DNA of 62,758 nucleotides from Acidobacteriota bacterium (GTDB lineage: Bacteria; Acidobacteriota; UBA6911), in contig JAFGSS010000001.1 of assembly GCA_016934555.1 (NCBI GenBank), positions 1-62,758 of the forward strand. The letters run 5' to 3'. This document shows positions 5,468-59,079 of the stretch, piece by piece. Position numbers and translations under genes: made by a program. The notes under the pieces were generated by a model. The model was not told where the DNA came from. It did not search any database and worked only from the letters and a program-made list of their open reading frames with translations. Position 1 is the first letter of the stretch. Each line of letters opens with the position of its first letter.

Positions 5468-5557
5468 TCCCATAAATTCCCTGATTGCAACGGTTCCCCC
5501 CCATCGTCAAATAAGATACAATGCATTCCTCGACTGCGTTGGCGGGTGGGGAGAGCG

Positions 5558-8500
5558 ATGAAGAAGCGCTGGATCGGACGCATAATCAAGGCGCTGGCGG
5601 CACTGGCCGTCTTCGTTGCCCTCATTCCGCTCCTGCTGCTGGCGCCGCCGGTCGGAAACTGGGTGTTCCATAAGGCGGGCGGATATCTCCGGCGCAGCGC
5701 GAAGATGGAGCTGCAGGCGGACCGGGTCCGGCTGAACCTGTTCACAGGGTCGGTCCGGTTGGAAAACCTGTCGCTCGCGGCTGCGCGCACCCCAGGACTC
5801 CCCCCCCTGCTGCAGGCCGATCACGCCTACGCCGACCTCGGTCTGCTCGATGCCGTCAGGGGGGTGTGGACGGTGGAAACCCTGCAGATCCACAAACCCA
5901 GGGTGCATTATTTCGTCGGCCCGGACGGGGAAACGAACCTGCCCCGGACGGAGGCCTCCGGGGACGCCTTACCCGATCTGCGGATTCTCCAGGCCGGCCT
6001 CACCGACGGCGCCCTGCGGTGGGAAGACCGCCGGCACGGACTGTGGATCGAACTCCCCCGCTGGGATCTTGCCGTCGAGGGAAACCGGGAGTCGCGCGCG
6101 CACCGCATCACCTTCGCCGGCCGGCAGGTTTCGACCTTCACCCTGGGGGACTTTTCGATCCCCGTCGATTCCGTCGATTTCGCAGGCGTTATGGACGGAC
6201 CCTTATGGCGCATAGACTCGGCCCGGGTCGGTGCCGCCCGGTCCACCCTTGAGTTCGGGGGATCCGTACGGAACCTCCGGGAACTCGACCTGGAACTGGC
6301 GCCCGGACTGGATGCCGGCGCCATCGCCGAAGCCGCGGGGTACGGGGGCAGGATCGCCGGCCGGGTCTCCGGAACCATCGGGGTCCGCGGCCCGCTCGAC
6401 AACCTGCGGATAGAGGGCCGGCTCGCGGGAGAGGGGGTGAAGCTGGAGGGGGTGCCTCCGCTCGACCTCCGGCTTGCCGCGGACCTGGAGTGGGATGCGG
6501 CCGGGGAGAGGGTGTCGATCGGAAGCCTGGACCTCGCCTCACCTTTAGGATCGCTCGGCGCCGAGGGAACGCTGTGCGCCGGGGAGGAGTGCGGGACCAG
6601 TGCCCTGCGGGCGCGGCTTCGTGACGTCGATCTCCTTCCCTTCGCGCGCAGCCTCGGTCTCCCTTTCCGCCTGGCCAGCCGGGTGGGAGGGACGGTCTCC
6701 GTCGAGTGGCGGGGGAAGCCCGCGCTGGCAAACATCCGCGCCAACGCCTCCCTCGAACTCGGGAGCACCCGTCCGGCGCCGGAGGCCGATCTCCTCCCCG
6801 TCTCCGCGACGGTGGATGCGGAGTTCGCATCCGGCCGGCTGCGGGGACACATACGCTCGCTTTCGGTCCTGGGTGCGCGGGCGACGGGCGAGTTCACCCT
6901 CCGATCTTTTCGCATCCTCGAGGGACACCTCCAGGGGGAAGCCGCCGACCTGGACGATTCCATGCAGCAGCTCGTGCGCTTTCTGGGGCATCCGGAATCC
7001 CCCGCAGGCGTCAGCCTGGCCGGCAACCTGAACTTCGACGTCCGGGCGGCGGGGGAACTGGACGACCTGGAGGTCGAGGCCGGGCTGGACGCCCCGTCGC
7101 TCGCGATCGCGGGCCTCGGGGGAATGGGGACCGAGGCGCGCGCCGTCTACCGAAACGGGACCCTCTCGTTTCAGAACAACCTCCGTCTTCCCGGCGAGGG
7201 CCTGCTGGAGGCCCAGGGCCTGCTCGATTTCGGCGGGGACGAGCCACGGTTGCGTCTCGCGGCCAAATCCGCGGCCCCCGTGCCGCTCGAGGCTCTCAAT
7301 TCACTGCTCGGGCGCTCGATCCCGATGTCGGGCACCCTGGAGACCTCGCTGCGCCTGGGCGGCCCCGTCGACAACCTCGCCGGGGATCTCTCCATCACGG
7401 GAGAAGCGCTCTCCCTGTACGAACTACCCCTGGGGCGGCTGGACATCCTGCTCGGCCTGGCCGATCGGGAGATCCGGTCCAGCCGGATTCGGATGTCGCG
7501 CAACCCCGAGCACCCATCGGCCGATCTGCTGACGGCCCGTGTTTCCTACTCCCTGGATACCGGCCGTTACGAACTCGAGGCGGAGGGGGCGGGGCTGGCC
7601 CTCGTCCCCGCGCACCTTCCCGGCGGAGCCCAAATCAACGGAACCCTCTCGCTCGAGGCTTCGGGAACGGGGACGATCGAAAATCCTTCCTTTGACCTCC
7701 AACTCGGATCGAACGACCTGCATGCATGGCGGAAACCCCTGGGCCCGGTTTCGGTCACGGCCCGGATCCGGGGGCCGGAAGCCGGCATCCGGGCGCTGGC
7801 ACCCGATCTTGATCTCTCCTCCGATGCCGCCCTGACACTGAGGGACCCCTGGCCCTTCCAGGTCACCGTCCAGGCGCGGGACTCCGACCTGGCCGCCGCC
7901 GGACTCGTGTGGCGCGGCCGGCCGGTAACCGGATCGCTCAGGGCGGACATCTCGGGTTCCGGAGAGCTGGGCGACCTGGAGGCGTCCCGGATCGAGGCGC
8001 TGATCGAAGAGGTGGCGGCGCGGGCGGGCGGACTCGAAGTGCGCACCGGGGCGGCGGCCGGAATCCACTATCGGGACCGCTCCCTGGAGTTCGCACCCCC
8101 CCTCGCCCTGGCCGGGGGCCATTCGGCGATAGAGCTTGGCGGCCGCCTCCCCATCCGGGCGGCGGCGCCGGCCGGAACCGTCAACCTCAAAGGGCGGCTC
8201 GACCTGGCGGACACCGGAAAAGTCTTCACCCCCCCCGAGGGATTCGGGCTCGAAGGAGTCCTCGATCTCGACCTGGTTCTCTCCGGCGCCTACGGAGATT
8301 TTGCCATCACGGGCGGATTCGGCCTGGACGCCGGAACGATATTCATTCCCAAAGCCGCCGTACCCATGACGGAAGCCTCCGCCCACGCGAAGATCGAGGA
8401 CGGGGTGCTGGTCCTGGAGCGGGCGGCCGCGAAATGGGGGAAAGGCAGCATCGGACTCTCGGGCACCGTCCCCCTCGGGTTGCTGCCCGAAGACCTTCCC

Positions 8501-11500
8501 CTCGAATTTGCGCGCCGGCCAGGGCCTGCCGAGTTCGTCCTCGACGTTGAAAATCTCGCCCCGGAAGCGACGGGATTCCTTCCCGAGGGAATTTCGGGCC
8601 TGGTTTCGCTCCGCGCCAGGGGGCGCGCCGAACATCCGGACCTCAAGGCCCTGGACGGCGACATCCGGTTCGGCACCCTGGACTTCAAGGTCGACACCAT
8701 CGGCTTCAGCCAGGCGGAACCGGTCCTGATCGAAATCCGCCGCGGCGTCGCCGCCATCGCCCGGCTCGCGCTCTCCGGGCCGGAAACCCGTATCGAGGCG
8801 TCCGGGACGGCGGGAGTGTACCCGCGGGGGCCGCTGGACCTCGCCGTCGAGGGCTCCCTCGACGCCGGGCTGCTCGGCGTTTTCAGCGAGGGGGTGAAAA
8901 CGGCGGGCGAACTGCGGATCGACGCGCGGGTCACGGGAGCCCTCGACGCCCCGGTTCTTTCGGGCCGGGCGGAAATGGACAACGGGAAGTTGGCCCTCCA
9001 ATCCCCCCGGCTCGCGGCCGACGATCTGAAGGTGCGGCTGGACCTCACCTCCGATTCCATCATCGTGCGCGAACTCACCGGCGTCCTCAACGGCGGCGCC
9101 ATGTCGGTCGAGGGTTCGATCGGGTACCATGACGGGATCCATAACGGCATCGATCTCGAGGCGAGCGTGCGGGACGTCTTCCTGGACTTCCCCGAGGGGC
9201 TGAAATCGGCGTCGAGCGGGAACCTGACCATGAAATCGGGGGAAGACACGATCGTCGTCGGCGGCAGCCTGCGGATCATGGAAAGCGCCTACCGGGATTC
9301 GATCGAAGTCGGGGGGCAGCTCGTCAACTACCTGAAATCGCAGCAGGTGGTGACCCTCGGCGAGGAACCCAATCCCTTCCTGGACCGGCTCCGGTTCAAC
9401 ATCGCCGTCCGCACCGTAACCCCGCTGCTGGTACAGAACAACATCGCCAGGGTCGAGGCCTCCGCCACGAATCTCCGCCTGGTCGGAAGCTATGCCGACC
9501 CCTCGGTCATCGGCCGCATCACCCTCGGCGAGGGGGGAGAGATCGTCCTCAACCAGCAGACCTATTACATCAACCGGGGGGTGATCACCCTGGTGAACCA
9601 GAGCCGCATCGAACCGGAATTCAACATCCAGGCGCAGACGAAGATCGACATCTACGAGATCACGCTCCAGCTGATCGGGAACCCCGACCGGATGTCCACC
9701 CTGCTCTCTTCCGACCCGCCGCTTTCGGAAAGGGACATCCTCTCGCTCCTCCTCACGGGCAAAACCGTCGCCGAGACCCAGGGGCGCGAGATGCAGATGG
9801 CCCGGACCCAGGCGCTGTCGCTGATCGCCGGACAGGCGGGGGCGGGAGTCACCAACGAGGCACGCAAGGCTCTGCACCTGAGCACCCTCCGGATCGACCC
9901 GGGGCTGATCGCCTCGGAATCCAACCCGGGGGCCCGCCTCACGATCGGGGAGGACGTCACGCGCGCCCTCAGCCTCGTCTATTCCATGAACCTCGTCAAC
10001 GGAGGGGACCAGATCTGGGCGGCCGAGTACGATATCGGCCGGCGCCTCTCGACCCAGGCCACCAAGCAGCAGGACAACAGCTACCGCTTCGAGTTCCGCC
10101 ACGACCTGCGCTTCGGGGGCGCAGGGGCGCGCCGCGGGGCGCAGCGGCAGGCGGCCCGGTTCGAGATCGGGTCGATCGAGTTCCTGGGGGAGGAGGCGCA
10201 CTCCGAAAAGGACCTGATGGACCGGTTCAAAAACAGGACGGGCGACCGGTACGAGTTTCAGAAAGTCCAGAAGGGGCTGGACCGCCTGAACGACTTCTAC
10301 TTCAGCCAGAACCGCCTGGAAGCCGATATCCGGCTCCAGCGCGAAACCGGGGAGAAGACCGTCGACCTGAAGGTCGGCATCGACCCCGGCCCGGTGGTGG
10401 AATTCGACTACGGCTCGTTCCCCCTCCGCAAGGAGGTGCGCGAGCGGGTCGCCAGGGCGTGGGCGGACGGGGTGTTCGAGGCCGAAAGACTGGACGAGGC
10501 GTCGCTCGTCATCCGCCGCTCCCTGACCGAAAGCGGTTTCCTCCAGGCCACGGTCGCGGCGGAAATGGCGGAGGGGGACGGCCGGAAGCGCGTTCGGTTC
10601 GCCATCGACCCCGGCCCCCATTACGCGGACGTTCCCCTCTCCTTCCCGGGGGCGGAGGGCATCTCCCCGGGCGCGCTCGGCGAACTCCTCGAGGCCGCCG
10701 ACCTGGAGCGCGAGATCTACGTCAACCCGAAAAAGGTGGCCGATTTCCTCCGGCGCTACTACCGCAACCGCGGGTACCTCCAGGCGGAGGTCTCCCCGCC
10801 GGAATTCCGAGCGGCCGCCCTGGAGACGGTGATCGCCGTTGCCGAGGGGCCGCTCTTCGTCATCGGCGAACTCGAGTTCTCCGGCAACAAGGTCTTCAGC
10901 TATGACGAACTCTGGATGGTCATCCCCACCTCGAGCGGCAGCGTCTACAACCCGGACTCGCTGAGGGAATCGGTCCGGGAGATGGAGAACCTCTACCACG
11001 GCCAGGGGTACAACGACGTCTCCATCACCTTCCGGGTGGTCCAGGACACCCCCGGGACCCGGGCCGACGTGAACTTCCAGATCACCGAACGGCGGCAGTC
11101 GGTCATCCGGGATATCGTGATCGAGGGGAACCGGGACACCCGGCCTGGGTTCGTCACCCGGCAGATCGACTTCCGGGTCGGCGACCCCCTGGATTACGAA
11201 AAGATCAACGAGGCCCGGAGGCGCCTGTATTCCACGGGGGTGTACACGACCGTCGATTTCCAGATGGAGGAACTCCCTTCCGAGGCTCCGGCCCCGGAGC
11301 GGAAGGACATGCGGGTGCGGGTCCGGCTGCGCGAGACCCAGCCCTACCGCCTGCAATACGGGCTCTTCTACGATACCGACCGCGGCGTCGGCGGCCTCGT
11401 GGAGGCGCAGCACCTGAACCTCCTGGGGCGGGCGACCAACCTCGGCCTCCGCCTCCGCTACGACTCCGACCTCAAGGAGGGGCGGTTGTACTATCACCAG

Positions 11501-12364
11501 CCTTTCGTGACCCGGCTCCACCTCAAGATGGACGCCAGCGCGTTCTGGCAGCAGGAGACGCGCTCCTTCTTTTCGGCGAAGCGCATCGGGTTCTCCCTGA
11601 TGCAGGAGCGGGGGCTTCCCCGGAGTTTCCGCCTCGATTACGGCTACCGCTACGATCACGTCCGCTGGAACGGACTGCCGCCCGACCCGATCCTCTTCCA
11701 GGCCAGCGACCCCGTCGCCCGGCTGACCGGGACGCTGACGCGCGACACGCGCGACAGCGTGCTCGACCCCACACGCGGGGAGTTCACCTCCCAAACATTC
11801 GAATTCGGCCCCCGCTGGCTCGGGTCCGAGGTCGGTTTCGCACGGTACTCGGGGCAATATTTCCGCTACCTCCCCCTGGACAAGTACCTGGGAAAACCGA
11901 TCGTGGACCGGAAAGGGGAACCGCTGCCGACGAACTTCGTCTACGCCGCGGCGCTGCGCCTGGGGCTGACGTCCCCCTTCGGGAAACAATCGCTGATCGC
12001 GCCCGAGCGCTTCTTCGCCGGGGGCGGCACCACCATGAGGGGGTTCGAGCAGGACCTGATGGGGCCGGTGGAGGAGCAGCCGGACGGCAGCCTGCGGCCG
12101 AGCGGGGGGGAAGCCATGTTCCTGCTCAACAACGAACTCCGCTTCCCGATCGTGGGCATCCTCCAGGGGGTGGCGTTCCTCGACATCGGCAACGTCTACA
12201 GGAAGCTGACCGACTTCGATTTCACCCTGCGCAAGACGGCCGGGGCCGGGCTCAGGCTGAAGATCCGGTCGATCCCCCTGCGGTTCGACTACGGGTTCAA
12301 GCTCGACCGGAAAACGGGTGAGAGCGGCGGAGAATTCTTCTTCAGCATAGGGCAGGCGTTCTAG
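5558..12364 (+). CDS. Fusion protein: N-terminal membrane anchor + TamB/AsmA-like (DUF490) region + POTRA repeats + Omp85/BamA-TamA-type beta-barrel
   Basis: One continuous ORF. ATG at 5558 follows GGGGAGAG (the track's GTG start is 5546). A TM helix (IIKALAALAVFVALIPLLLLAPP) opens the protein. It is followed by about 1500 aa of beta-rich TamB-like sequence, ending in a DUF490-like block (LSSDPPLSERDILSLLLTGKT...YSMNLVNGGDQIWAAEYDIGRRLSTQATKQQDNSYRFEFRHDLRF, to about nt 10120). POTRA-like repeats start at FEIGSIEFLGEE (nt 10160). The Omp85 barrel carries the motifs FFAGGGTTMRGF, FLDIGNVY and GAGLRLKIRSIPLRFDYGF, and ends in the C-terminal beta-signal FFFSIGQAF. Confidence 0.85.
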   Translation: MKKRWIGRIIKALAALAVFVALIPLLLLAPPVGNWVFHKAGGYLRRSAKMELQADRVRLNLFTGSVRLENLSLAAARTPGLPPLLQADHAYADLGLLDAVRGVWTVETLQIHKPRVHYFVGPDGETNLPRTEASGDALPDLRILQAGLTDGALRWEDRRHGLWIELPRWDLAVEGNRESRAHRITFAGRQVSTFTLGDFSIPVDSVDFAGVMDGPLWRIDSARVGAARSTLEFGGSVRNLRELDLELAPGLDAGAIAEAAGYGGRIAGRVSGTIGVRGPLDNLRIEGRLAGEGVKLEGVPPLDLRLAADLEWDAAGERVSIGSLDLASPLGSLGAEGTLCAGEECGTSALRARLRDVDLLPFARSLGLPFRLASRVGGTVSVEWRGKPALANIRANASLELGSTRPAPEADLLPVSATVDAEFASGRLRGHIRSLSVLGARATGEFTLRSFRILEGHLQGEAADLDDSMQQLVRFLGHPESPAGVSLAGNLNFDVRAAGELDDLEVEAGLDAPSLAIAGLGGMGTEARAVYRNGTLSFQNNLRLPGEGLLEAQGLLDFGGDEPRLRLAAKSAAPVPLEALNSLLGRSIPMSGTLETSLRLGGPVDNLAGDLSITGEALSLYELPLGRLDILLGLADREIRSSRIRMSRNPEHPSADLLTARVSYSLDTGRYELEAEGAGLALVPAHLPGGAQINGTLSLEASGTGTIENPSFDLQLGSNDLHAWRKPLGPVSVTARIRGPEAGIRALAPDLDLSSDAALTLRDPWPFQVTVQARDSDLAAAGLVWRGRPVTGSLRADISGSGELGDLEASRIEALIEEVAARAGGLEVRTGAAAGIHYRDRSLEFAPPLALAGGHSAIELGGRLPIRAAAPAGTVNLKGRLDLADTGKVFTPPEGFGLEGVLDLDLVLSGAYGDFAITGGFGLDAGTIFIPKAAVPMTEASAHAKIEDGVLVLERAAAKWGKGSIGLSGTVPLGLLPEDLPLEFARRPGPAEFVLDVENLAPEATGFLPEGISGLVSLRARGRAEHPDLKALDGDIRFGTLDFKVDTIGFSQAEPVLIEIRRGVAAIARLALSGPETRIEASGTAGVYPRGPLDLAVEGSLDAGLLGVFSEGVKTAGELRIDARVTGALDAPVLSGRAEMDNGKLALQSPRLAADDLKVRLDLTSDSIIVRELTGVLNGGAMSVEGSIGYHDGIHNGIDLEASVRDVFLDFPEGLKSASSGNLTMKSGEDTIVVGGSLRIMESAYRDSIEVGGQLVNYLKSQQVVTLGEEPNPFLDRLRFNIAVRTVTPLLVQNNIARVEASATNLRLVGSYADPSVIGRITLGEGGEIVLNQQTYYINRGVITLVNQSRIEPEFNIQAQTKIDIYEITLQLIGNPDRMSTLLSSDPPLSERDILSLLLTGKTVAETQGREMQMARTQALSLIAGQAGAGVTNEARKALHLSTLRIDPGLIASESNPGARLTIGEDVTRALSLVYSMNLVNGGDQIWAAEYDIGRRLSTQATKQQDNSYRFEFRHDLRFGGAGARRGAQRQAARFEIGSIEFLGEEAHSEKDLMDRFKNRTGDRYEFQKVQKGLDRLNDFYFSQNRLEADIRLQRETGEKTVDLKVGIDPGPVVEFDYGSFPLRKEVRERVARAWADGVFEAERLDEASLVIRRSLTESGFLQATVAAEMAEGDGRKRVRFAIDPGPHYADVPLSFPGAEGISPGALGELLEAADLEREIYVNPKKVADFLRRYYRNRGYLQAEVSPPEFRAAALETVIAVAEGPLFVIGELEFSGNKVFSYDELWMVIPTSSGSVYNPDSLRESVREMENLYHGQGYNDVSITFRVVQDTPGTRADVNFQITERRQSVIRDIVIEGNRDTRPGFVTRQIDFRVGDPLDYEKINEARRRLYSTGVYTTVDFQMEELPSEAPAPERKDMRVRVRLRETQPYRLQYGLFYDTDRGVGGLVEAQHLNLLGRATNLGLRLRYDSDLKEGRLYYHQPFVTRLHLKMDASAFWQQETRSFFSAKRIGFSLMQERGLPRSFRLDYGYRYDHVRWNGLPPDPILFQASDPVARLTGTLTRDTRDSVLDPTRGEFTSQTFEFGPRWLGSEVGFARYSGQYFRYLPLDKYLGKPIVDRKGEPLPTNFVYAAALRLGLTSPFGKQSLIAPERFFAGGGTTMRGFEQDLMGPVEEQPDGSLRPSGGEAMFLLNNELRFPIVGILQGVAFLDIGNVYRKLTDFDFTLRKTAGAGLRLKIRSIPLRFDYGFKLDRKTGESGGEFFFSIGQAF

Positions 12365-15531: not shown

Positions 15532-17133
15532 GTGCACGTGACCGAGACTCGAGCCGCAGCCGCAGGGACCCGCAAGCGCCAGACCGCGGAAAGCATGGCC
15601 GCGCGCCAGCGTGAAATTTCTATTTCGGAATTTTTCAGCAAGAACCGGCACCTGCTGGGATTCGACAACCCGCAAAAGGCGCTGCTGACGGCGGTCAAGG
15701 AGGCGGTGGACAACTCGCTCGACGCCTGCGAGGAGGCGGGCTTCCTCCCCTCGATCCGCATCGCCATCCGGCAGGTCGGGGAAGACCGCTTCCGCGTGTC
15801 CGTGGAGGACAACGGGCCCGGGATCGTCAAGGCGCAGATCCCGAAGATCTTCGGCAAGCTCCTGTACGGATCGAAGTTTCACACGCTCAAGCAGGCGCGG
15901 GGGCAGCAGGGGATCGGCATCTCGGCGGCCGGGATGTACGGGCTGCTCACCACCGGGAAATCGATCGTCATCACCTCCCGCACCGGCGCGGGCAAGCCGG
16001 CGCACTACTACGAGATCCAGATCGACACCCGGAAGAACGCGCCCCAGATCATCACCGACAGGATCATCGACTGGGACCCCCCGCACGGGACCCTGGTGGA
16101 AATCGAGCTGATCGGGACCTACAAGAAGGGACGGCACTCGGTCGAGGACTACGTGCGCCAGACGGCCATCGCCAACCCCCATTGCGAGATCTTCTACACC
16201 CCCCCCGACGCGGCCGAACCGATGCACCTGGTCCGGGGCTCGGAACTGCTGCCCCCGGAGCCCCGGGAAATCAAACCCCACCCCTACGGGGTGGAACTCG
16301 GCGTGCTCATCCGGATGATGAAGGAGACCTCCGCCCGCCAGCTGGGCGCCGCCCTGCAGAAGGATTTTTCGCGCGTGAGCGCGAAGATCGCGGCGGAGAT
16401 CTGCAAGGCGGCCGGGCTGCGGCCCAGCGCCAACCCCCATACCCTTCCGGGACAGGAGGCGGAGAGGCTCTACAAGGCGATCAACGGCGTGAAGATCATG
16501 AGCCCGGCGACCAACTGCCTCTCCCCCATCGGGGAGGAGCAGATCCTGGCGGGCCTCCGCAAGGAAATCGACGCCGATTTCTTCACCGCCATCACGCGCT
16601 CGCCGGCGGTCTACCGGGGCAACCCCTTCCAGATCGAGGTCGGACTCGCCTACGGCGGGCGCCTCCCGGGGGACGAGCTGGTGGACCTGCTCCGCTTCGC
16701 CAACCGCGTCCCCCTGCAGTACCAGCAGTCGGCCTGCGCCATCACCAAGGCCGTGCTCGGCATCGACTGGCGCAGCTACGGGCTGCCACAGTCCAAGGGG
16801 GCGCTCCCGACAGGGCCCGTGGCGCTGTTCGTGCACATGGCTTCCGTCTGGGTCCCCTTCACTTCGGAGAGCAAGGAGTCGGTGGCCCCCTATCCCGAAA
16901 TCCTGCGCGAGCTGCGCCTGGCGCTGCAGGAATGCGGGCGCAAGCTCGCCAGCCACATCCGCGCCCACCGCCGGGCGGCCGAAGAGGAAAAGAAGAAGTC
17001 GTACATCGAGAAATACATCCCGCACATCGGCATCGCCCTGCGCGAAATCCTGGCGCTCTCGGAGCGCGAGGAGCGGGAGGTCGTCACCACCCTGGTCGAC
17101 GTCCTCGAACGGAGCCGCGGCAGGGAACAATGA
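15532..17133 (+). CDS. top6B: DNA topoisomerase VI subunit B
   Basis: REISISEFFSKNRHLLGFDNPQKALLTAVKEAVDNSLDACEEAG is a Bergerat/GHKL ATPase N-terminus typical of Top6B. GPGI and GQQGIGISAA motifs are present. Length 533 aa. An alternative ATG start lies at 15595. Confidence 0.9.
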   Translation: MHVTETRAAAAGTRKRQTAESMAARQREISISEFFSKNRHLLGFDNPQKALLTAVKEAVDNSLDACEEAGFLPSIRIAIRQVGEDRFRVSVEDNGPGIVKAQIPKIFGKLLYGSKFHTLKQARGQQGIGISAAGMYGLLTTGKSIVITSRTGAGKPAHYYEIQIDTRKNAPQIITDRIIDWDPPHGTLVEIELIGTYKKGRHSVEDYVRQTAIANPHCEIFYTPPDAAEPMHLVRGSELLPPEPREIKPHPYGVELGVLIRMMKETSARQLGAALQKDFSRVSAKIAAEICKAAGLRPSANPHTLPGQEAERLYKAINGVKIMSPATNCLSPIGEEQILAGLRKEIDADFFTAITRSPAVYRGNPFQIEVGLAYGGRLPGDELVDLLRFANRVPLQYQQSACAITKAVLGIDWRSYGLPQSKGALPTGPVALFVHMASVWVPFTSESKESVAPYPEILRELRLALQECGRKLASHIRAHRRAAEEEKKKSYIEKYIPHIGIALREILALSEREEREVVTTLVDVLERSRGREQ

Positions 17134-17191: not shown

Positions 17192-18319
17192 ATGGCGAAG
17201 AAATCAGAAACCGGGAAAAAGGCCGCGCCCAGCTCGGGCAAAGCCGTCCTCAAGGCGATCGTAAGCTCGGCGGAGGATATCCGGCGCAAGATCATGGCGG
17301 GCAGGAAGCCGACCATGAAGCTCCCGGTCCGCTCCCTTTCCAACGTCCGGTACCAGCCCGAGCGCGGATTCTTTGAAATGAAGGGGCAGAAGAAGGAACG
17401 GACGCTCACGGTGAACACCGTCAAGACCTTCGCCCAGACCCTGCGCATGGTGGCGCTCTCGAAGGAGCTGGTGGAAAACGACGACATCGCAACCAAGAGG
17501 GAGGCCTACTACGTTTCCAAGAACTGGGAGGAGGCGCGTTTTGCCGAGCAGCCGGAATCTGACACCGTCATGGACGACGTCGAGGCCTTTTTCGGCGTCA
17601 ACCGCGAGCAGCTCGGCTTCATCCCCGAGGAAAAGGGGGGGGACGTCGCCGGCCGCCTGGTCGTGATCGACCGCGACCGCGACACGGGGCAGACGCTCCG
17701 GATCGACTGCACCCGGTTCGGGTCGGGCGCCTACAGCATCCCGATTTCCGTGGAAGACCTCAAGTTCGAGACCCAGGCCGATTTCATCCTCGCCATCGAG
17801 ACCGCGGGGATGTTCCAGCGCCTGGTGAAGCACAACTACTGGAAGAAGGCCAACTGCATCCTGGTCAGCATGGGGGGGGTCCCGACGCGCGCCTGCCGCC
17901 GCTTCATCCGCCGCCTGGCCGACTTCAAAAAGATCCCGGTCTACGTCTTCGTCGACGGGGACCCCTACGGGATCACCAACATCTACCGCACCCTCAAGGT
18001 GGGGAGCGGCAACGCCGCGCACCTCAACGAATACTTCTGCGTCCCCCAGGCCACCTTCCTGGGGATCACGCCCCAGGACGTCATCGACTACAAGCTCCCC
18101 ACCCACCCCCTGAAGGACGTGGACATCAAGCGCGCGCGGGACGCCATCAAAAACGACCCCTTCATCAAACACTACCGGCCGTGGATCAAGGCGATGGAGC
18201 AGATGCTCAAGATGGGGGTGCGCGCCGAACAGCAGGCGCTGGCCAAGCACGGGCTCAACTACGTCATCGAGGAGTACCTGCCCCAGAAGCTCAGCCACCC
18301 CGAACGCTTTTTGCCGTAG
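17192..18319 (+). CDS. top6A: DNA topoisomerase VI subunit A (Spo11-like)
   Basis: REAYYVS (catalytic Tyr region) and the Toprim motifs LAIETAGMF and VDGDPYGI. It follows top6B directly. Confidence 0.9.
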   Translation: MAKKSETGKKAAPSSGKAVLKAIVSSAEDIRRKIMAGRKPTMKLPVRSLSNVRYQPERGFFEMKGQKKERTLTVNTVKTFAQTLRMVALSKELVENDDIATKREAYYVSKNWEEARFAEQPESDTVMDDVEAFFGVNREQLGFIPEEKGGDVAGRLVVIDRDRDTGQTLRIDCTRFGSGAYSIPISVEDLKFETQADFILAIETAGMFQRLVKHNYWKKANCILVSMGGVPTRACRRFIRRLADFKKIPVYVFVDGDPYGITNIYRTLKVGSGNAAHLNEYFCVPQATFLGITPQDVIDYKLPTHPLKDVDIKRARDAIKNDPFIKHYRPWIKAMEQMLKMGVRAEQQALAKHGLNYVIEEYLPQKLSHPERFLP

Positions 18320-18340
18320 GGGACAGTCACCAGTGTCCCC
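18319..18340. repeat. Palindromic repeat element copy A (GGGGACAGTCACCAGTGTCCCC), a likely bidirectional terminator hairpin
   Basis: Stem GGGGACA/TGTCCCC with an 8-nt loop. It exactly fills the gap between the top6A stop (18317-18319) and the convergent GNAT stop (18340-18342). Near-identical copies lie at 20173 and 37926. Confidence 0.7.
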
Positions 18341-18795
18341 TATTCCTTCATCCACTCGAACAGGCGGTAATGCCCGTCGTCCATGCCGCAGTGCCGGTAG
18401 ACGGCGGCGGCATTGCGGTTGCCGCGCTCCACGTAGAGCCGGATCCCGTGGACATCCGTGCGCTCCGCCGCCTCCCGCTTCACCCGGCCGAACATCTCCC
18501 TGAATGCGCCCGCGCCCCGGCAATCGGGGACCACGTATACGGAGTGGACCCAGAGCACCTCGCCCCCCCGCCAGTCGCTCCATTCGTAGAGCACCATCAG
18601 ACAGCCGGCGGGGCGGCCGTCCGCTTCCGCCACCAGGTAGTAACCCCGTTCGGGGCAGCCGAGGATATGCCGGACCCCCTTCCCCACCCTCTCCGGGTCC
18701 AGGACCTTCCCTTCGGTCTCCAGCGCCATGGCGACCTGAAACGCCGCCAGTGCCGGGGCGTCACCGGGCCCGGCCCTGCGAACTCTGAATTCCAT
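18340..18795 (-). CDS. GNAT family N-acetyltransferase
   Basis: MEFRVRRAGPGDAPALAAF...VHSVYVVPDCRGAGAFREMF...NRNAAAVYRHCGM is a typical GNAT acetyl-CoA binding core. Confidence 0.8.
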   Translation of the reverse strand: MEFRVRRAGPGDAPALAAFQVAMALETEGKVLDPERVGKGVRHILGCPERGYYLVAEADGRPAGCLMVLYEWSDWRGGEVLWVHSVYVVPDCRGAGAFREMFGRVKREAAERTDVHGIRLYVERGNRNAAAVYRHCGMDDGHYRLFEWMKE

Positions 18796-19026
18796 GGATG
18801 GCCTCCCTGCGGGCCTCCTCCCGGAGCCGCCAGCGCCTGCTGTTTCATGCCCCCGGCGCGGCCGGCATCCGGGATCGAGGACCGACAGGTATTATGCCTG
18901 AATCCGCGTCCGTGCGCCCCCCTCCTTTTGAGCAGGGTGCGCAGCGCCATCTTTGGTAGAATGAAGTCAACGGCAATGTCGCCCCCGGCTTCGACCGAAG
19001 CGTGCGGTCCACACAAAGGAGGCATC

Positions 19027-20172
19027 ATGCATCGTTTCACCCGGCAGCACCTGAACCTTCTGACGGCGCGGCACGAGTCCCCCTGCGTCTCCCTGTATCA
19101 GTCCACTCACCGGCATCGTCCCCTGAACCAGCAGGACCCGGTCCGGTACCGCAACCTGCTCCGGGAGATGGACGCCTCCCTCCGCCGGCTTTACCCGGCG
19201 AGGGACGTGAAGCCGATCCTGGAACCCTTCGAGAAACTCGTCCGCGACGATGTTTTCTGGAACGGGAGGACCGAGGGAATGGCGCTCTTCGCTGCGCCCG
19301 GAATGTTCCAGGCGCTGTACCTGCAGCAGGCGGTCCCCGATCTTCTCATCGTGGCCGACAGCTTTCACATCAAGCCGCTGCTGCGGATCGCGCAGTCTGC
19401 CGACCGCTACCAGGTCCTGTGCCTCACCCGGCGGGAGGCCAGCCTCTACGAGGGGAACCGGGACGCGCTCGATGCGGTGGAACTGAAAAACATGCCCTCG
19501 ACCCTTACCGACGCGCTGGGGGAGGAGTTGACCGAACCGCACCAGACCGTCGCTTCCTACGGACAGGGAAGCGGCGGCACGCCCATGCGCCACGGGCACG
19601 GTTCGAGGAAGGACGAGGTCGACACCGACACCGAGCGGTTCTTCCGCGTCATCGACAGGGGCATCCTGGAACATTACTCGCAGCCTTCCGGCCTCCCCCT
19701 GATGCTGGCCGCGCTGCCCGAGTACCACACGCTGTTCCGATCGGTCAGCCACAATCCCCAGCTCCTGCAGGCGGGGATCACGATCAACCCGGACGCCCTG
19801 ACCCCGGAACAGCTGCGGACCGAATCGTGGCGCAGGATGGAACCGCTCTACCAGAAGCGGATCGACGCCTTGATCCGCGACTACCAGGAGGCGAAGTCCC
19901 GCAGGCAGGGATCAGACGACCTGTCCCTGCTGGCGGCGGCGGCGGCCGAGGGGCGCGTCGCCACGCTCTTGGTCGAGGCACACCGCCAGGTGCCGGGCCG
20001 GATCCTCTCCGGCACCGGCGAGATCAGGGCGAGCGCGATGTCCGACCCGGACACCGATGACGTCCTGGACGATCTGGCCGAACACGTGCTCCGGACGAAG
20101 GGAGAGGTGATCGTCATCCCCGGGGAGGAGATGCCCACCAGGACCGGCGCGGCCGCCATCTACCGTTACTGA
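19027..20172 (+). CDS. Bacterial archaeo-eukaryotic release factor (baeRF)-like protein
   Basis: ATG at 19027 is preceded by AAAGGAGG. The N-terminal PCVSLYQSTHRHRP...VRYRNLLREM and the C-terminal GEVIVIPGEEMPTRTGAAAIYRY resemble the baeRF3/7 families (eRF1/Pelota-like domain ending in an aromatic-rich tail). The 663-aa track ORF from 18181 is an upstream extension across the GNAT gene. Confidence 0.55.
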   Translation: MHRFTRQHLNLLTARHESPCVSLYQSTHRHRPLNQQDPVRYRNLLREMDASLRRLYPARDVKPILEPFEKLVRDDVFWNGRTEGMALFAAPGMFQALYLQQAVPDLLIVADSFHIKPLLRIAQSADRYQVLCLTRREASLYEGNRDALDAVELKNMPSTLTDALGEELTEPHQTVASYGQGSGGTPMRHGHGSRKDEVDTDTERFFRVIDRGILEHYSQPSGLPLMLAALPEYHTLFRSVSHNPQLLQAGITINPDALTPEQLRTESWRRMEPLYQKRIDALIRDYQEAKSRRQGSDDLSLLAAAAAEGRVATLLVEAHRQVPGRILSGTGEIRASAMSDPDTDDVLDDLAEHVLRTKGEVIVIPGEEMPTRTGAAAIYRY

Positions 20173-21164: not shown

Positions 21165-21373
21165 GGATGCCCCCCGGCCGGCCGAATGTCCGGGATCGCC
21201 CCGAAAACGATATTCGGAACGGTGTGACGCCGGCCACACCCTATTATGCATAATTCCCTTAGTTTTTTAAGGTTGTACGGTGATTTGACCCGCTGTTTTT
21301 GGTAGATTACTGGGGTTCCATCACAAGTCGGCGTGCGGGGCGCGGGCGGGGGACCATTTTCCAATCATCAGGC

Positions 21374-23428
21374 ATGGACGGAATGCAGGAGATCAGACGC
21401 ATTCTTCTGACCGGCGGCGGAACCGCGGGTCATGTCAACCCGGCGCTGGCCATCGGATCGGCCCTTGATTCCGGGAAAACCCGTTTCCTTTTTGTCGGGG
21501 TCAGGGGAAGGATCGAGGAGCAGGTCGTCCCGCGCGAGGGGATGCCGATAAAGTACGTCCGGGCCTCCGGTTTCCCCGGCACCCTCTCCCCCGCCCTCCT
21601 CCCCTTTCTGGCCAACCTGTCGATCGGCATCCTGCAGTCTCTCTGGATCCTCTACCGGTTCCGCCCCGACGTCATCGTGGGGACCGGGGGCTACGTCTCC
21701 GCCCCCATCGTCATGGCCGCCGCGGTGCTCCGGAAACTGCGCCTCAGCCATGCCCGCGTCTTCATCCACGAGCAGAACGCGGTCCCGGGCAAACTGAACC
21801 AGCTGATGGGACGATTCGCCGACCGCATTCTGGTCACCTTCCCCGAGACCCTCTCCTTCTTCCCCGCCAACGGGGCGCTGGCGGGCTACCCGCTGCGGAG
21901 GCGCATCGCCGCGGTCGGCCGGGAGGAGGCGCTGAAAAAGATCGATTTCCCCATTCCGGAGCACCGCAAGGTGGTCCTGGTCTTCGGGGGAAGCCAGGGG
22001 TCGCGGACCATCAACCGGGCCCTCGTCGACGCGCTCCGGCACCTCCTCCCCTTCCGCGACCGCCTCTTCATCGTCCACGGCACCGGGTTGATGAAAAGCC
22101 GTCAATACGACGCCTCCGCCGACACCGAGGCGAGGGTGCGCCGCCTGTACGAAGGGGAGGAGCTCGGGCAGATCGAGTCCTTCTACCTTCATCGTCCCTA
22201 TTTTTACAATATCGAAAACCTGTACGCGGTGAGCGATCTCGTGATCGCCCGCGCCGGTGCCGGGAGCCTCAACGAGATCTCGGCCATGGGGCTCCCGGCC
22301 CTCATCATCCCCAAGTCCAATCTCCCCGGGAACCACCAGGTGATGAACGCACGCAGCATGGAACGGGCGGGGGGAGCCGAAATCCTCTACGAACAGATCG
22401 CGCCGGTCGACGGCAGGCTCGATGAATGGCTCGACGGCAAGGCCCTGGCGGAGGCGATCGCCTCGCTGGCGCTGGACGACGACCGGCTGGAGCGCCTGCG
22501 GCACCGGAGCCGCGAGTTCCTCAACCGGGATGCGCTCGGCAGGATCGCCCGCATCATCCGCGCCGAGGACGCCGGGGAGACCGAAGCCGCGCCCGGCGCC
22601 CCCCTCCCCGGAACGGGGCCGGAGGAGGAGCGCCTTCCCGGCAACCGCGCGCTGCTGTTGCTGCTGGAAAAGGCGGAGCGCTCGCACCCCCATCTCTACA
22701 ACCCGGAAACCGTCGTCGGGCGCCCGCAGGACCTGGAATTTTACAGGAACCGGGCCAGCGCGCTGCTGATCCACCCCTCCTGGCCCGAACGCAACCTGGG
22801 AGTCAAGCTCCTGGGACTGCTGCACGCGCGCGAAAAAGCGCCGGCGCTGGTGACCCTGCTCAGGGAGCGAAAGCAGGCCTCTCTCCTGAAGCGTTGCCTG
22901 GGCGGGGATTTCGAACAGGTCGGCTTCATCCGGCGCAACATCGTCACCGCCCTGGTCCGGATGGACGCGCTCGACGAGGGAATCGAGGCGGCGCTGCTCG
23001 AGGCCCTGGGAGACCCCTACTACGAGGTCCAGGCCGAAGCCGCCCGTGCCGCCGCCCACTTCGGGAGCCGCCTCCCGAGCCGCGAGCGCTTCGTGTGCGC
23101 GCTGCTTGAAAATCTCAAGGACAGGAACCTGGACGTCAGCACCGCGGCCGCGGAGGCCCTCGGCGTCATCGGCGGCGAGCGGGACGCACTCCCCGCGCTC
23201 CTTAAGCTGTGGGACACCCGGTTCTGGAAGATGCGGGCGGCGGCCCTCCGCGGCCTCTATCTCCTGGTCGAGCGGGGGGAGGTGTCCGACCCCAAGGCGC
23301 TCGAAACGGAAATCCCCAGGTTCATTCTGACTTCGACCGACTTCCGGCCCCATTTTGAGATAAAATCGACCTACCGGCGCCTCATGGAATCCCTTTCCAG
23401 GACAAAGGAGAAGGGTCTTCGGCCATGA
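21374..23428 (+). CDS. murG: MurG-type glycosyltransferase (lipid I to lipid II) with ~290-aa C-terminal HEAT-repeat extension
   Basis: The MurG core shows ILLTGGGTAGHVNPALAIG, GGSQGSRTIN, ARAGAGSLNEISAMGLPALIIP and NHQVMNA. The C-terminal part has HEAT/PBS-lyase-like repeats (DPYYEVQAEAARAAAHFG, DRNLDVSTAAAEALGVIGG, FWKMRAAALRGL). The stop overlaps the mraY ATG (ATGA). Confidence 0.8.
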   Translation: MDGMQEIRRILLTGGGTAGHVNPALAIGSALDSGKTRFLFVGVRGRIEEQVVPREGMPIKYVRASGFPGTLSPALLPFLANLSIGILQSLWILYRFRPDVIVGTGGYVSAPIVMAAAVLRKLRLSHARVFIHEQNAVPGKLNQLMGRFADRILVTFPETLSFFPANGALAGYPLRRRIAAVGREEALKKIDFPIPEHRKVVLVFGGSQGSRTINRALVDALRHLLPFRDRLFIVHGTGLMKSRQYDASADTEARVRRLYEGEELGQIESFYLHRPYFYNIENLYAVSDLVIARAGAGSLNEISAMGLPALIIPKSNLPGNHQVMNARSMERAGGAEILYEQIAPVDGRLDEWLDGKALAEAIASLALDDDRLERLRHRSREFLNRDALGRIARIIRAEDAGETEAAPGAPLPGTGPEEERLPGNRALLLLLEKAERSHPHLYNPETVVGRPQDLEFYRNRASALLIHPSWPERNLGVKLLGLLHAREKAPALVTLLRERKQASLLKRCLGGDFEQVGFIRRNIVTALVRMDALDEGIEAALLEALGDPYYEVQAEAARAAAHFGSRLPSRERFVCALLENLKDRNLDVSTAAAEALGVIGGERDALPALLKLWDTRFWKMRAAALRGLYLLVERGEVSDPKALETEIPRFILTSTDFRPHFEIKSTYRRLMESLSRTKEKGLRP

Positions 23429-24531
23429 TCTATCTTCTCGGAAAATACCTCCACCCCAACTTTGAGCCCTTCTCCTTCCTGCGCCTGGTGGAGTACATCT
23501 CGGCCAGGGCCATCGGCGCCGCACTGACGGCCATCATCCTGACGCTCGCGCTGACGCCGCTCGTGATCCGGTACCTGCACCGCAGGGGCATGGTGGACCA
23601 GTGGCGGAACACGGGGGTCTCCTCCGCTTTCGACAAGGCGGGGACCCCGGCGATGGGGGGCGCCATCGTCGCCGGGTGCGTCCTGGTCTCCTGCCTGCTC
23701 TGGTGCAACATGTCCAACCTGTACCTCCTGGCGGTGCTCGCGGGAATGGTCTGGTTCGGCGGGATCGGTCTGGTGGACGATATCGCCAAAACGAAGGCGC
23801 GCTCGGGCGACGGGGGGATGAGCGAGACCAAAAAACTGCTGCTGCAGGCGACGTTCGCCGCTGGGCTGGCGCTCTTTCTGGCCAGCCCCTGGTCGCCGCT
23901 GCCGGCCGGTCACGCGGGCGCCTTCTACGTCCCGTTCGTCAAGGCCCCTTTGTTTGCTTCCCTCTGGCTGTACCTCCCCATCGTCTTCTTTTTCGTGGTG
24001 GTGGTGGGGAACGCGGTGAACATCGCCGACGGGATGGACGGCCTGGCCATCGTCCCCTCGGTCTTCGCCATCGGGGTGCTGGGCTTTTTCGGCTACCTCC
24101 TCGGCAACGCCATCTGGGCCCGGTACCTCAACTATCCCTTTTACCCGGGGACGGGGGAACTCGCGGTCTTCGCTTCCGCCTTCGCCGGGGCGGGCATCGG
24201 CTTTCTCTGGTTCAACGCCTACCCGGCCCAGATCTTCATGGGGGACACCGGGTCGATGGCCATCGGCGGCTCGATCGCGGTGCTTTCGGTGATGTTGAAG
24301 CAGGAAGCCCTCTTCCTGATCCTCGGCGGCCTTTTCGTGGCCGAGGCCGCCACGTCGCAGATCCAGGACAAGATCGGGATCCGGTGGCTCGGCCGCCGGA
24401 TATTCATGCGGGCGCCGCTGCACCACGCCATGCAGCACAACGGGCTGGCCGAGACCAAGGTGGTGATCCGGCTCTGGATCGTCTCGGGGATCCTGGCCCT
24501 GGCCGCCCTGGCGACCCTGAAACTGCGCTGA
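23425..24531 (+). CDS. mraY: Phospho-N-acetylmuramoyl-pentapeptide transferase
   Basis: GTPAMGG, LVDD, NAVNIADGMDGLA, FMGDTGSMAIGG, RAPLHH, and C-terminal LATLKLR. About 10 TM helices. Confidence 0.95.
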   Translation: MIYLLGKYLHPNFEPFSFLRLVEYISARAIGAALTAIILTLALTPLVIRYLHRRGMVDQWRNTGVSSAFDKAGTPAMGGAIVAGCVLVSCLLWCNMSNLYLLAVLAGMVWFGGIGLVDDIAKTKARSGDGGMSETKKLLLQATFAAGLALFLASPWSPLPAGHAGAFYVPFVKAPLFASLWLYLPIVFFFVVVVGNAVNIADGMDGLAIVPSVFAIGVLGFFGYLLGNAIWARYLNYPFYPGTGELAVFASAFAGAGIGFLWFNAYPAQIFMGDTGSMAIGGSIAVLSVMLKQEALFLILGGLFVAEAATSQIQDKIGIRWLGRRIFMRAPLHHAMQHNGLAETKVVIRLWIVSGILALAALATLKLR

Positions 24532-24534
24532 CCC

Positions 24535-46238: not shown

Positions 46239-46891
46239 GCATAGTGACCATTGAGCGGAAAGTACTCGAAAAGAACGACCAGATCGCCGAGCGGAACCGG
46301 CGCTTCTTCCGGGACCGGGGGATCTTCGTCCTGAACCTCGTCAGCAGCCCGGGCGCCGGGAAGACCTCCATCCTGGAAAAGACTTTCGAGCGGTTGCGGG
46401 ACGACTGCAGGATGGCCGTCATCGAGGGGGACGTCCAGACCGACCTGGACGCCCAGCGGGTGGCCGAGTACCAGGTCCCCGTGGTCCAGATCGTGACCAT
46501 GGGGGGCTGCCACCTCGAGGCGGGCCTGGTGGCCGACGCCATGGGAAAACTGGACCTGGACTCCGTCGACCTGCTCTTCATCGAAAATGTCGGGAACCTG
46601 GTCTGCCCTTCCGGCTACGACCTCGGGGAGGCGCTGAAGGTGGTGGTCCTGAGTACGACCGAGGGGGACGACAAACCCCTGAAGTACCCGGCGATGTTCC
46701 GCAACGCATCGGTCCTCCTCATCAACAAGACCGACCTGATCCCCTACGTGAACTGCCGGCTCGACGTCCTGCGCGGCAACGCCCTTAAAATCAATCCCGA
46801 TCTCCGGGTTTTTGAAATATCCTGCTCCACGGGCGCCGGGATCGACGCCTGGTGCGAATGGCTCAGGGGAAAGGGCGCTTCCGGGCAGTGA
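46235..46891 (+). CDS. hypB: Hydrogenase nickel-incorporation GTPase HypB
   Basis: P-loop SSPGAGKTSILE, ENVGNLVCP and LINKTDL. The ATG overlaps the hypA stop (ATGA). Confidence 0.9.
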   Translation: MSIVTIERKVLEKNDQIAERNRRFFRDRGIFVLNLVSSPGAGKTSILEKTFERLRDDCRMAVIEGDVQTDLDAQRVAEYQVPVVQIVTMGGCHLEAGLVADAMGKLDLDSVDLLFIENVGNLVCPSGYDLGEALKVVVLSTTEGDDKPLKYPAMFRNASVLLINKTDLIPYVNCRLDVLRGNALKINPDLRVFEISCSTGAGIDAWCEWLRGKGASGQ

Positions 46892-46899
46892 TTCAAAGG

Positions 46900-49233: not shown

Positions 49234-49453
49234 GAGCATCGACAGCACCGATCCGGTGTTTCGCAGCGGAAAGGTCAATTTCGGCGGGATCCTCAAGGAG
49301 GTCAACCTCGCCTACGTGCCGGAGGCGAACATCGGCGATTACGTCCTCGTGCATGTCGGGTTCGCCATCAGCACCATAGACGAGGCGCAGGCGAAGGAAA
49401 CACTCTCGTACCTCGAGGAGATCGACCGGCTGGCCGGGGTGGAGAACGGATGA
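49205..49453 (+). CDS. hypC: Hydrogenase assembly chaperone HypC
   Basis: The [10 protein letters not shown]-terminus is diagnostic for HypC/HupF. Confidence 0.9.
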
Positions 49454-58927: not shown

Positions 58928-59023
58928 ACCTCTTCCCGTCGAAAAAAAGCATAATCATACCTGATTTTTCGGGAAATGCCCTAAAAAGTATGCACCCCCG
59001 GGCCGGGGGCGCGGAATCTTCCA

Positions 59024-59053
59024 TTGGCTTCGGAAAGGTTTGTGGACTAAGAT
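59024..59053 (+). promoter_or_regulatory. Sigma70-like promoter candidate for selB
   Basis: TTGGCT (59024-59029), an 18-nt spacer, then TAAGAT (59048-59053), in the AT-richer ffh/selB divergent region. Confidence 0.3.
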
Positions 59054-59079
59054 GAGGTTTTTTGCGACGTTGGAAACTT

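Follow-up and report, generated by a model that had tools for sequence, protein, structure and literature searches.

In this article we describe a gene in which a TamB-like protein and an Omp85 outer membrane protein are joined in a single polypeptide. The gene lies on the plus strand of a 62,758-nucleotide stretch of DNA from an uncultured soil bacterium of the Acidobacteriota (GenBank assembly GCA_016934555.1, contig JAFGSS010000001.1, positions 1 to 62,758; this whole stretch is called the window below), and it encodes, from the N- to the C-terminus, a TamB-type bridge with a DUF490 end, a short linker and a BamA-like Omp85 protein. The fusion belongs to a family which is real, which is widespread in uncultured Acidobacteriota and which is undescribed in the literature searched. 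The identity of its parts can be regarded as nearly certain. As to its way of working, we consider it somewhat more probable than not that the protein is a single-chain, trans-envelope counterpart to TAM (translocation and assembly module), which docks its TamB end to its own barrel (in cis) and acts as a lipid conduit.

A stop-free frame from 5546 to 12364 (plus strand) constitutes the single fusion open reading frame (ORF) of the window. Its ATG at 5558 is preceded by a Shine-Dalgarno-like stretch, GGGGAGAG, just upstream, and 2,268 codons follow until the stop at 12362-12364. The GC content at third codon positions (GC3) is 0.86, like that of the other credible genes of this window of ~66 % GC. 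The closest relatives, L001 (77 % identity) and L002 (84 %), come from independent assemblies and carry the gene uninterrupted, as does P0001, where it is identical. The first-pass annotation of the window, made from the letters alone, had proposed one covalent frame with a TamB-like part, a linker, POTRA domains and an Omp85 barrel in this order, and the ORF together with the Pfam and NCBIfam matches clearly supported it. All three Pfam profiles scored above their cut-offs, namely TamB/DUF490 (PF04357; residues 1174-1513, 101 bits with a cut-off of 22.4, E 1.1e-28, profile positions 4-381 of 381), POTRA (PF07244; three stretches, 128.7 bits, cut-off 21.3) and Omp85 (PF01103; residues 1954-2268, 141 bits, cut-off 24). 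The same succession of a TamB end, a linker with low values of the predicted local distance difference test (pLDDT), five POTRA domains and a barrel appeared in the AlphaFold2 (AF2) model of the junction region, and the boundaries given earlier were off by a few codons at most (last TamB strand up to nt 10114, linker 10115-10159, POTRA1 from 10160).

It should be emphasized that this junction is not peculiar to one contig. A search over the full length brought up 78 proteins of 1,965-2,352 amino acids (aa) with a common Pfam set, down to ~23 % identity, and all 78 of them can be aligned through the junction, where the last strand of TamB, which is conserved, is followed by a short basic linker and then by POTRA1; altogether 222 fusion proteins of at least 1,900 aa sharing the junction were gathered. 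When the representatives of 1.84 billion clusters (50 % identity) were screened with a junction profile of 376 positions, each of the best 150 clusters matched profile positions 1-375 in one stretch (150/150, E <=1e-111), most of these being proteins of 2,000-2,370 aa whose junction falls near residues 1,330-1,720, and 1,901 proteins in total were found at E <=1e-30. A scan of one genome per GTDB species yielded 47 loci, mostly in Bryobacterales and Vicinamibacterales, about 43 of which span the whole junction, and in ~40 independent assemblies one stop-free ORF of ~2,200-2,350 codons carries matches to both the TamB-C and the barrel hidden Markov models (HMMs). The hosts belong to Bryobacterales/Bryobacteraceae/Bryobacter, Solibacteraceae, 'Ca. 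Sulfopaludibacter', Vicinamibacterales, Luteitalea and other Acidobacteriota, and include a complete 9.1-Mb chromosome of a Bryobacterales metagenome-assembled genome (MAG; OZ252029.1). Two fusion-bearing MAGs are labelled Cyanobacteriota (L049, JAIEMQ010000031.1; L050, CAWHWW010000001.1); their fusions nest with Vicinamibacterales in the barrel tree described below, and the labels or the binning are probably wrong.

With such a distribution, the suspicion that a missed stop or frameshift, or a chimeric assembly, has joined two neighbouring genes retains hardly any probability. A few relatives on long-read-style contigs do come in two or three ORFs (L005, 6001-12883; L057, 109-6929; the N-terminal part of L034), and these breaks are probably, and most simply, indel errors, real pseudogenes or secondary fissions being also possible. 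Against an artefact stand the uninterrupted junction in ~40 independent assemblies and in 222 proteins down to ~23 % identity, the coding-like GC3 throughout, and the finding that a signal peptide never precedes the Omp85 part in the fused genes; the artefact reading is effectively refuted.

The N-terminal hydrophobic anchor predicted from the letters was found again. The sole 19-residue segment of the protein with a Kyte-Doolittle hydropathy of at least 1.6 covers residues ~9-27 (maximum 2.68) and coincides with an AF2 helix at residues 3-27, and 89 % of the 170 homologues of full length have a comparable N-terminal segment. In the AF2 model of residues 1-1150 (pLDDT 88.6) a second helix (30-47) and then ~80 consecutive β-strands follow, a run which extends to residue ~1386 in the model of residues 1100-2268; the all-β part measures ~1,350 aa. 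A Pfam match of the DUF748/YhdP type at residues 2-174 stays below the cut-off, and homologues carry the precomputed PF27051 (TamB_N). With Foldseek only low-TM matches were obtained for the N-terminal half, to the ApoB100 β-belt, to an N-terminal fragment of Vps13 (probability 0.96) and to LptD; these would be compatible with a long lipid-binding β-sheet, and are neither a fold assignment nor a proof of an AsmA-like groove.

At the DUF490 end, the profile of the family junction could be aligned to the C-terminus of E. coli TamB by hhalign with a probability of 95.8 %. The TamB part gave no significant match to E. coli TamB by BLASTP and none to the PDB sequences by phmmer, so that the TamB relationship is seen by profile methods only, direct sequence comparisons being without a match; the proteobacterial TamB equivalog of NCBIfam (NF047952) reached 38.6 bits, with a cut-off of 825. 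According to DSSP on the AF2 model this end is made up of helices (residues 1391-1439) and six strands (1443-1519), the pLDDT climbing to 88 in the last one. The C-terminal domain of E. coli TamB consists of two helices and six strands (PMC12800296), a conserved amphipathic helix in it is functionally critical (PMC13119328), and its last strand (residues 1251-1259; the protein ends ...ALDLLYQFEF) was seen by cryo-electron microscopy (cryo-EM) to pair with β1 of TamA in a hybrid barrel (PMC12800296, PMC13119328). The last TamB strand of the fusions has the consensus SYRFEFRHDLRF-GG across the 78 aligned junctions. It ends at F1519 in the window protein, followed by Gly-Gly, and among the 222 fusion proteins its terminal residue is Phe in 169 and the next one Gly in 196. 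Hydrophobic and charged residues alternate along this strand, with an acidic residue at position -7 in 171/222, which would be the position of E. coli D1252 if both strands are anchored on the terminal Phe, a register suggested by sequence comparison. The free C-terminus of a TamB is missing here: the chain runs on through a 15-aa linker into POTRA1.

Over the 222 proteins the linker has a median length of 17 aa (5-95 %: 14-21), is rich in Arg, Gly, Pro and Ala, and carries a net positive charge in 85 % of the cases. The maximum 9-residue hydropathy among them is 1.36, and because the linker never has a hydrophobic core, the Omp85 part is without a signal peptide of its own. To judge from its narrow length range and the missing hydrophobic core, the linker looks structurally constrained. 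The same element was considered as a possible cleavage site: the fusion might be a polyprotein precursor, exported in one piece and cut in its basic linker by a periplasmic protease into a separate TamB and Omp85, so that the fusion would serve co-export and 1:1 stoichiometry only. A linker which is flexible (low pLDDT in the model of residues 1100-2268), rich in Arg and devoid of secondary structure would suit such a cut, and co-export is obligatory for an Omp85 part lacking its own signal peptide. Nevertheless, no conserved cleavage motif was found across the 222 linkers, only composition and length being conserved, the cut would leave a TamB C-terminus of the form F-G-G-x with no terminal aromatic residue, and a precedent among Omp85 or AsmA-like proteins is not known to us; processing of this kind appears quite improbable.

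The C-terminal half resembles BamA. Its best NCBIfam match is TIGR03303 (BamA; residues 1636-2268, from profile position 96), at 250.5 bits below the cut-off of 297.15, and the TamA equivalog, with 61 bits for a cut-off of 625, and TamL, with 90 bits for one of 400, stayed far below theirs. The fusion has five POTRA domains where the rule for TamA is three, and a lipobox of the TamL type is not possible because the POTRA-proximal region lies inside the chain. In the AF2 model of residues 1100-2268 (pLDDT 80, predicted TM-score (pTM) 0.67) five β-α-α-β-β POTRA units are followed by the barrel, whose strands have pLDDT values mostly of 85-95. Foldseek aligned ~830 columns of it to full-length, five-POTRA E. 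coli BamA (E 5e-40), with slightly higher TM-scores to substrate-engaged BamA states, and ranked TamA 50th; the PDB sequence matches of the Omp85 part were mainly BamA as well. The terminal Phe noted earlier for the barrel is there, the chain ending in ...SIGQAF: a C-terminal Phe occurs in 167/170 homologues, and the L6 motif [VIMLT]RG[FY], MRGF in the window protein, in 165/170.

Relatives were searched for fused as well as for split genes and, besides the 222 fusions, split tamB-omp85 pairs were found too. The free-standing relatives of the fused Omp85 part share at most 28 % identity with it. In all three contexts examined (P0135, P0136, P0137) omp85 directly follows a tamB of 1,320-1,430 aa, with stop and start codons abutting or overlapping, and the same order is found in L006 with the overlap TGATG. 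According to the genome and HMM scan, tamB-omp85 pairs occur throughout Nitrospirota (L142-L180) and also in Acidobacteriota (Vicinamibacterales, Luteitalea, Sulfopaludibacter; L181-L218), and the split Omp85 proteins begin with ordinary signal peptides, e.g. MRAVRAATLLALALFAGAALTTAQP in L213. The reverse order, omp85-x-tamB, was seen in Terriglobia (L003), and it is the one given for Acidobacteria by Heinz et al. 2015 (PMC4494059). The first-pass annotation had argued that simple loss of a stop codon cannot explain the fusion; this argument falls because it assumed the proteobacterial order, tamA before tamB, as the ancestral one, whereas tamB before omp85, with stop and start abutting or overlapping, is the usual order in Acidobacteriota and Nitrospirota. 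We infer a simple route to the fusion, in which a tamB-omp85 bicistron would have lost its stop codon and the signal peptide of the Omp85 (~22 aa) would have degenerated into the ~17-aa linker.

Two side observations concern the split genes. In L006, L059, L140 and L141 (1641-11704 in L141) the split pair recurs in a cluster with the biotin carboxylase gene accC and the biotin carboxyl carrier gene accB before it and a SurA_N/rotamase-like gene (~200 aa) after it, and this link of fatty-acid synthesis to a TamB bridge at the operon level fits a lipid-transport role. In L198, L208 and L214 (unclassified or candidate division FCPU426) TamB-like ORFs of 1,810-1,855 codons, stop to stop, are followed by Omp85 ORFs of 790-855 codons; these represent a further tamB-omp85 lineage, outside Acidobacteriota and Nitrospirota.

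One Vicinamibacteria MAG (MFD04944.bin.1.72) carries both forms: the fusion (L036) lies on contig CAWIMD010000002.1, and CAWIMD010000001.1 has a split pair (L213). These contigs are similar in GC content (0.705 and 0.719, respectively), and their TamB parts share only 26 % identity. In at least that genome the fusion is thus an old paralogue that exists in addition and is not a replacement, and the two loci imply two parallel TamB-Omp85 systems in one cell. In a neighbour-joining tree of the barrels (148 sequences over 353 columns, without bootstrap) a single clade takes in 61 of the 62 fused barrels; it adjoins the two split TamB-linked clades, and the BamA-like sequences without a TamB link (Nitrospirota, Verrucomicrobiota, Omnitrophota) stand apart from it. 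On the strength of this tree a single early origin in Acidobacteriota may tentatively be considered likely but not secure; the neighbour-joining tree of TamB-C groups 50/60 fusions, with the ten most divergent unresolved.

The barrel tree also bears on the idea that the fused Omp85 is the canonical, essential BamA of the organism, i.e. that the fusion is a covalent form of the BamA-TamB of Borrelia and not a TamA-like paralogue. Its five POTRA domains and its best profile and structure matches point to BamA over TamA, the fusion gene of L008 lies ~6 kb downstream of dxr-rseP, which is a common bamA neighbourhood, and no canonical bamA was found in a fusion-bearing genome by a scan whose seed was a Verrucomicrobiota BamA. 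Despite this, we consider the idea very unlikely: with 250.5 bits the match to TIGR03303 does not reach the required 297.15, the fused barrels group with the TamB-linked Omp85 proteins and apart from the TamB-unlinked BamA-like set, at least one further Omp85 is present in one MAG, the neighbourhood is not conserved, with skp and lpxD not adjacent, and a canonical and a second BamA have both been reported in Acidobacteria (Heinz et al. 2015, PMC4494059).

The following working of the fusion is proposed. The protein would be exported in a Sec-dependent manner with its N-terminus kept in the inner membrane, and its C-terminal barrel would be folded into the outer membrane by another Omp85 of the cell. 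The protein's own barrel might then take up the six DUF490 strands at its lateral gate, the last TamB strand pairing with barrel β1, which would mirror the TamA-TamB hybrid barrel known from cryo-EM. The linker would leave the periplasmic end of this strand, beside the start of β1 and POTRA5, and reach back to POTRA1, with the POTRA arm curling round the end of the groove. Phospholipid could run along the groove from the inner to the outer membrane over a permanent 1:1 bridge, and support of outer membrane protein assembly is possible too, as for TAM. The narrow range of linker lengths in the aligned proteins fits one fixed geometry. How such a barrel could be delivered while the N-terminus stays in the inner membrane had been raised as a puzzle of biogenesis; it is much reduced, since ordinary TamB is already embedded at both membranes, by an inner membrane anchor and by six C-terminal strands in the outer membrane hybrid barrel (PMC12800296, PMC13119328), and a separate Omp85 exists in at least one fusion-bearing MAG. 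The assembly of E. coli TamB depends on the capacity of the β-barrel assembly machinery (BAM).

For two elements of this proposal, the hybrid barrel in cis and the function as a lipid conduit, we see an even to slightly better chance, and several points weigh against the proposal. The cis hybrid barrel is a prediction with indirect support from the pLDDT of 88 in the last strand, the pTM of 0.67 and the Foldseek TM-scores. A linker of 15-17 aa must reach POTRA1, the membrane-distal POTRA, which requires a curled POTRA arm; an arm of this kind appears in the Borrelia BamA-TamB model, where POTRA1 approaches POTRA5 and the barrel of BamA is completed by TamB. The only further Omp85 found in a fusion-bearing genome is the TamB-linked one, in a single MAG, and no canonical BamA was found in fusion-bearing genomes by the scan, which was seeded with Omp85 proteins of ~780 aa that proved to be BamA of Verrucomicrobiota (Udaeobacter). 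The assignment of lipid versus protein as the substrate is carried over by analogy from the E. coli TAM work, where it is itself debated. Neither the cluster names nor a search seeded with the fusion of a Bryobacter sp. MAG contained a cultured or UniRef-named member, and the single origin is not secure because of the ten most divergent fusions in the TamB-C tree.

The same linker raises the question of docking in trans, where the DUF490 strands would enter another barrel (that of a canonical BamA, of the Omp85 of the split pair, or of a second fusion copy in a domain-swapped oligomer), and the protein's own barrel would be an independent insertase or a mere outer membrane anchor. The short linker ties the TamB end to the POTRA domain furthest from the barrel and makes cis docking geometrically demanding, another Omp85 is available in at least one fusion-bearing MAG, and docked and undocked TamB were found at ~1:1 in one cryo-EM study of E. 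coli. We still regard docking in trans as unlikely, since the single-chain AF2 arrangement is reasonably defined (pTM 0.67) and its last TamB strand is modelled confidently, linkers of so uniform a length suggest that the geometry within the molecule is fixed, and the original interface is usually kept when interacting partners fuse.

Docking in cis, which we prefer, could also be permanent. The docking of TamA and TamB at the outer membrane is disputed, one group describing a stable hybrid barrel and another a dynamic one, and the fusion provides a useful natural experiment in this dispute. With a tether of only ~17 residues between the DUF490 strand and the POTRA arm that belongs to its own barrel, it is conceivable, although we put it forward only tentatively and would not expect it on balance, that this strand never leaves the lateral gate, i.e. 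that the fusion is a hard-wired TAM. If this were true, an Omp85 could function with its gate permanently occluded, and the natural experiment would become a decisive one on the stable versus the dynamic hybrid barrel, favouring the view that TAM-type machines are lipid conduits in the first place and not β-barrel insertases; abundant soil bacteria would then run two parallel bridges, one split and one fused.

Compared with E. coli TAM, the fusion has the same inner-membrane-anchored AsmA-like β-groove and the same DUF490 end of helices and six strands; the pairing of the last, β-signal-like TamB strand with β1 of the Omp85 barrel is proposed for the fusion by likeness, and the 1:1 stoichiometry is given by covalency. 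E. coli TAM is composed of two subunits, whereas the fusion is one polypeptide with TamB first and Omp85 second, encoded by a single ORF in varied contexts and not by an operon. TamA of E. coli has three POTRA domains and the fusion five, with an Omp85 part lacking a signal peptide, and the TamB part of ~1,520 aa exceeds E. coli TamB (1,259 aa). With the TamA and TamB models of NCBIfam far below their cut-offs the two are not orthologous, and it is by analogy, in function and anatomy, that the fusion is a TAM-type machine.

The BamA-TamB pair of Borrelia burgdorferi (PMC5582053, PMC11361582, PMC13382580) shares with the fusion the order of tamB before omp85 and a BamA-like partner with five POTRA domains, and its TamB C-terminal strands have been modelled as completing the BamA barrel, with POTRA1 near POTRA5; there, however, two proteins are involved and the partner is the sole canonical BamA, whereas the fusion is covalent and its barrel groups with TamB-linked paralogues. 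The nearest sequence relatives of both halves are the split pairs (L006, L059, L140-L218; the 'second BamA'-TamB operon of Heinz et al. 2015, PMC4494059), most of which have the same gene order, a similar C-terminal strand motif of TamB (...YALDVRVRHAF) and a host in the same phylum, even in one MAG. They differ from the fusion in the stop codon between the genes and in an Omp85 of 900-990 aa which has its own signal peptide and is about two POTRA domains longer, and they often stand in the accC-accB-tamB-omp85-SurA-like cluster, whereas the fusion gene stands alone. In the chloroplast TIC236-TOC75 system an inner membrane TamB homologue likewise bridges to an outer membrane Omp85 channel, but these are separate proteins of eukaryotes serving protein import. 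Modules fused N-terminally to POTRA/Omp85 have a precedent in the patatin-POTRA-Omp85 protein PlpD and in the WD40-like Omp85 proteins (Heinz & Lithgow 2014, PMC4104836); unlike the fusion, none of the ten Omp85 classes of that survey (PMC4104836) has an AsmA/TamB module or an inner membrane anchor.

The claim that this architecture had not been described before stood up to the search of the literature: in full-text papers and preprints, including the two Heinz surveys, a 2024 TAM review, an AsmA review, a TamL preprint and the structural papers of 2026, a naturally occurring TamB-Omp85 fusion was nowhere found to be mentioned, and the bacterial classes of a recent survey of DUF490 protein lengths reach only up to ~1,700 aa. 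It had been conceded that the fusion might turn out to be common and already annotated, and this came true in part: the architecture is common in metagenomes and MAGs and is named automatically in the databases (as 'TamB domain-containing protein', 'BamA/TamB' or 'YaeT'), but no description of it was found in the literature searched.

The fusion amounts to Rosetta-stone-type evidence for an obligate 1:1 pairing of TamB and Omp85, and it takes this pairing well past Proteobacteria and spirochaetes. The length-constrained linker provides a geometric restraint for any structural model, and the protein itself is a single-chain target of fixed stoichiometry for cryo-EM and complementation tests. 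Acidobacteriota, a dominant soil phylum, can hold two parallel TamB-Omp85 systems. On the other hand, the fusion of interacting partners is a familiar evolutionary outcome, and no new biochemical principle is indicated by it.

Table 1. Features of the TamB-Omp85 fusion gene (positions in the window) and the evidence for each.
Feature	Position	Strand	Evidence
Whole fusion gene	5558..12364	+	ORF, Shine-Dalgarno-like site, GC3 0.86, domain matches
N-terminal hydrophobic signal-anchor, residues ~9-31, IIKALAALAVFVALIPLLLLAPP	5582..5650	+	Hydropathy, AF2 helix
AsmA/TamB-like repeating β-groove, residues ~32-1390	5651..9727	+	AF2, weak Pfam and Foldseek matches
Pfam TamB/DUF490 match, residues 1174-1513	9077..10096	+	PF04357, hhalign
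DUF490 helices, residues ~1391-1439, one long helix at 1414-1439	9728..9874	+	AF2 DSSP
Six terminal TamB β-strands, residues 1443-1519; last strand YRFEFRHDLRF, β-signal-like	9884..10114	+	AF2 DSSP, homologues
Basic Gly/Arg/Ala linker GGAGARRGAQRQAAR, 15 aa, without hydrophobic core	10115..10159	+	Junction alignment
Five POTRA domains, residues ~1535-1895	10160..11242	+	Pfam, TIGR03303, AF2, Foldseek
Omp85 16-strand barrel, L6 MRGF motif, C-terminal ...SIGQAF	11243..12361	+	Pfam PF01103, AF2, motifs

The fusion gene is monocistronic, and its neighbours vary between lineages, none being conserved across the family; neither skp nor lpxD was adjacent to it at the loci examined. In the window a convergent gene for a PlsC-type acyltransferase (PF01553; 12361-13164, minus strand) overlaps the stop codon of the fusion gene by 4 nt, a synteny which is shared by the close relatives L001, L002 and L057 only and is not family-wide. 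At 26/45 loci, all of the Bryobacterales group (L012-L054; e.g. L016, 1379-2038, plus strand), a tetratricopeptide repeat (TPR) gene of ~200 aa on the same strand ends exactly at the start of the fusion gene. Its product carries a signal peptide without a lipobox Cys and may be an accessory factor, loosely like BamD; the TPR gene is not next to the fusion in the window, in L001 or in Vicinamibacteria.

Some other genes of the window should be mentioned. Subunits B and A of topoisomerase VI, a type IIB enzyme mainly of archaea and eukaryotes, are encoded at 15532-17133 and 17192-18319 (both plus strand), here in Acidobacteriota. Directly after them, at 18181-20172 (plus strand), lies a gene for a 663-aa protein with a C-terminal baeRF family-3 domain, baeRF being a bacterial relative of the archaeo-eukaryotic release factors. 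At 21299-26172 (plus strand) a MurG-like glycosyltransferase (GT28 N- and C-terminal domains) of 709 aa carries C-terminal HEAT repeats, an unusual extension of MurG, and downstream of its gene a MraY-like GT4 gene and then murJ follow. Finally, hypF and hypD (hydrogenase maturation), ffh (SRP54) and selB (selenocysteine elongation factor), at 46852-50541 (plus strand) and 57593-60978, make up an ordinary housekeeping context.

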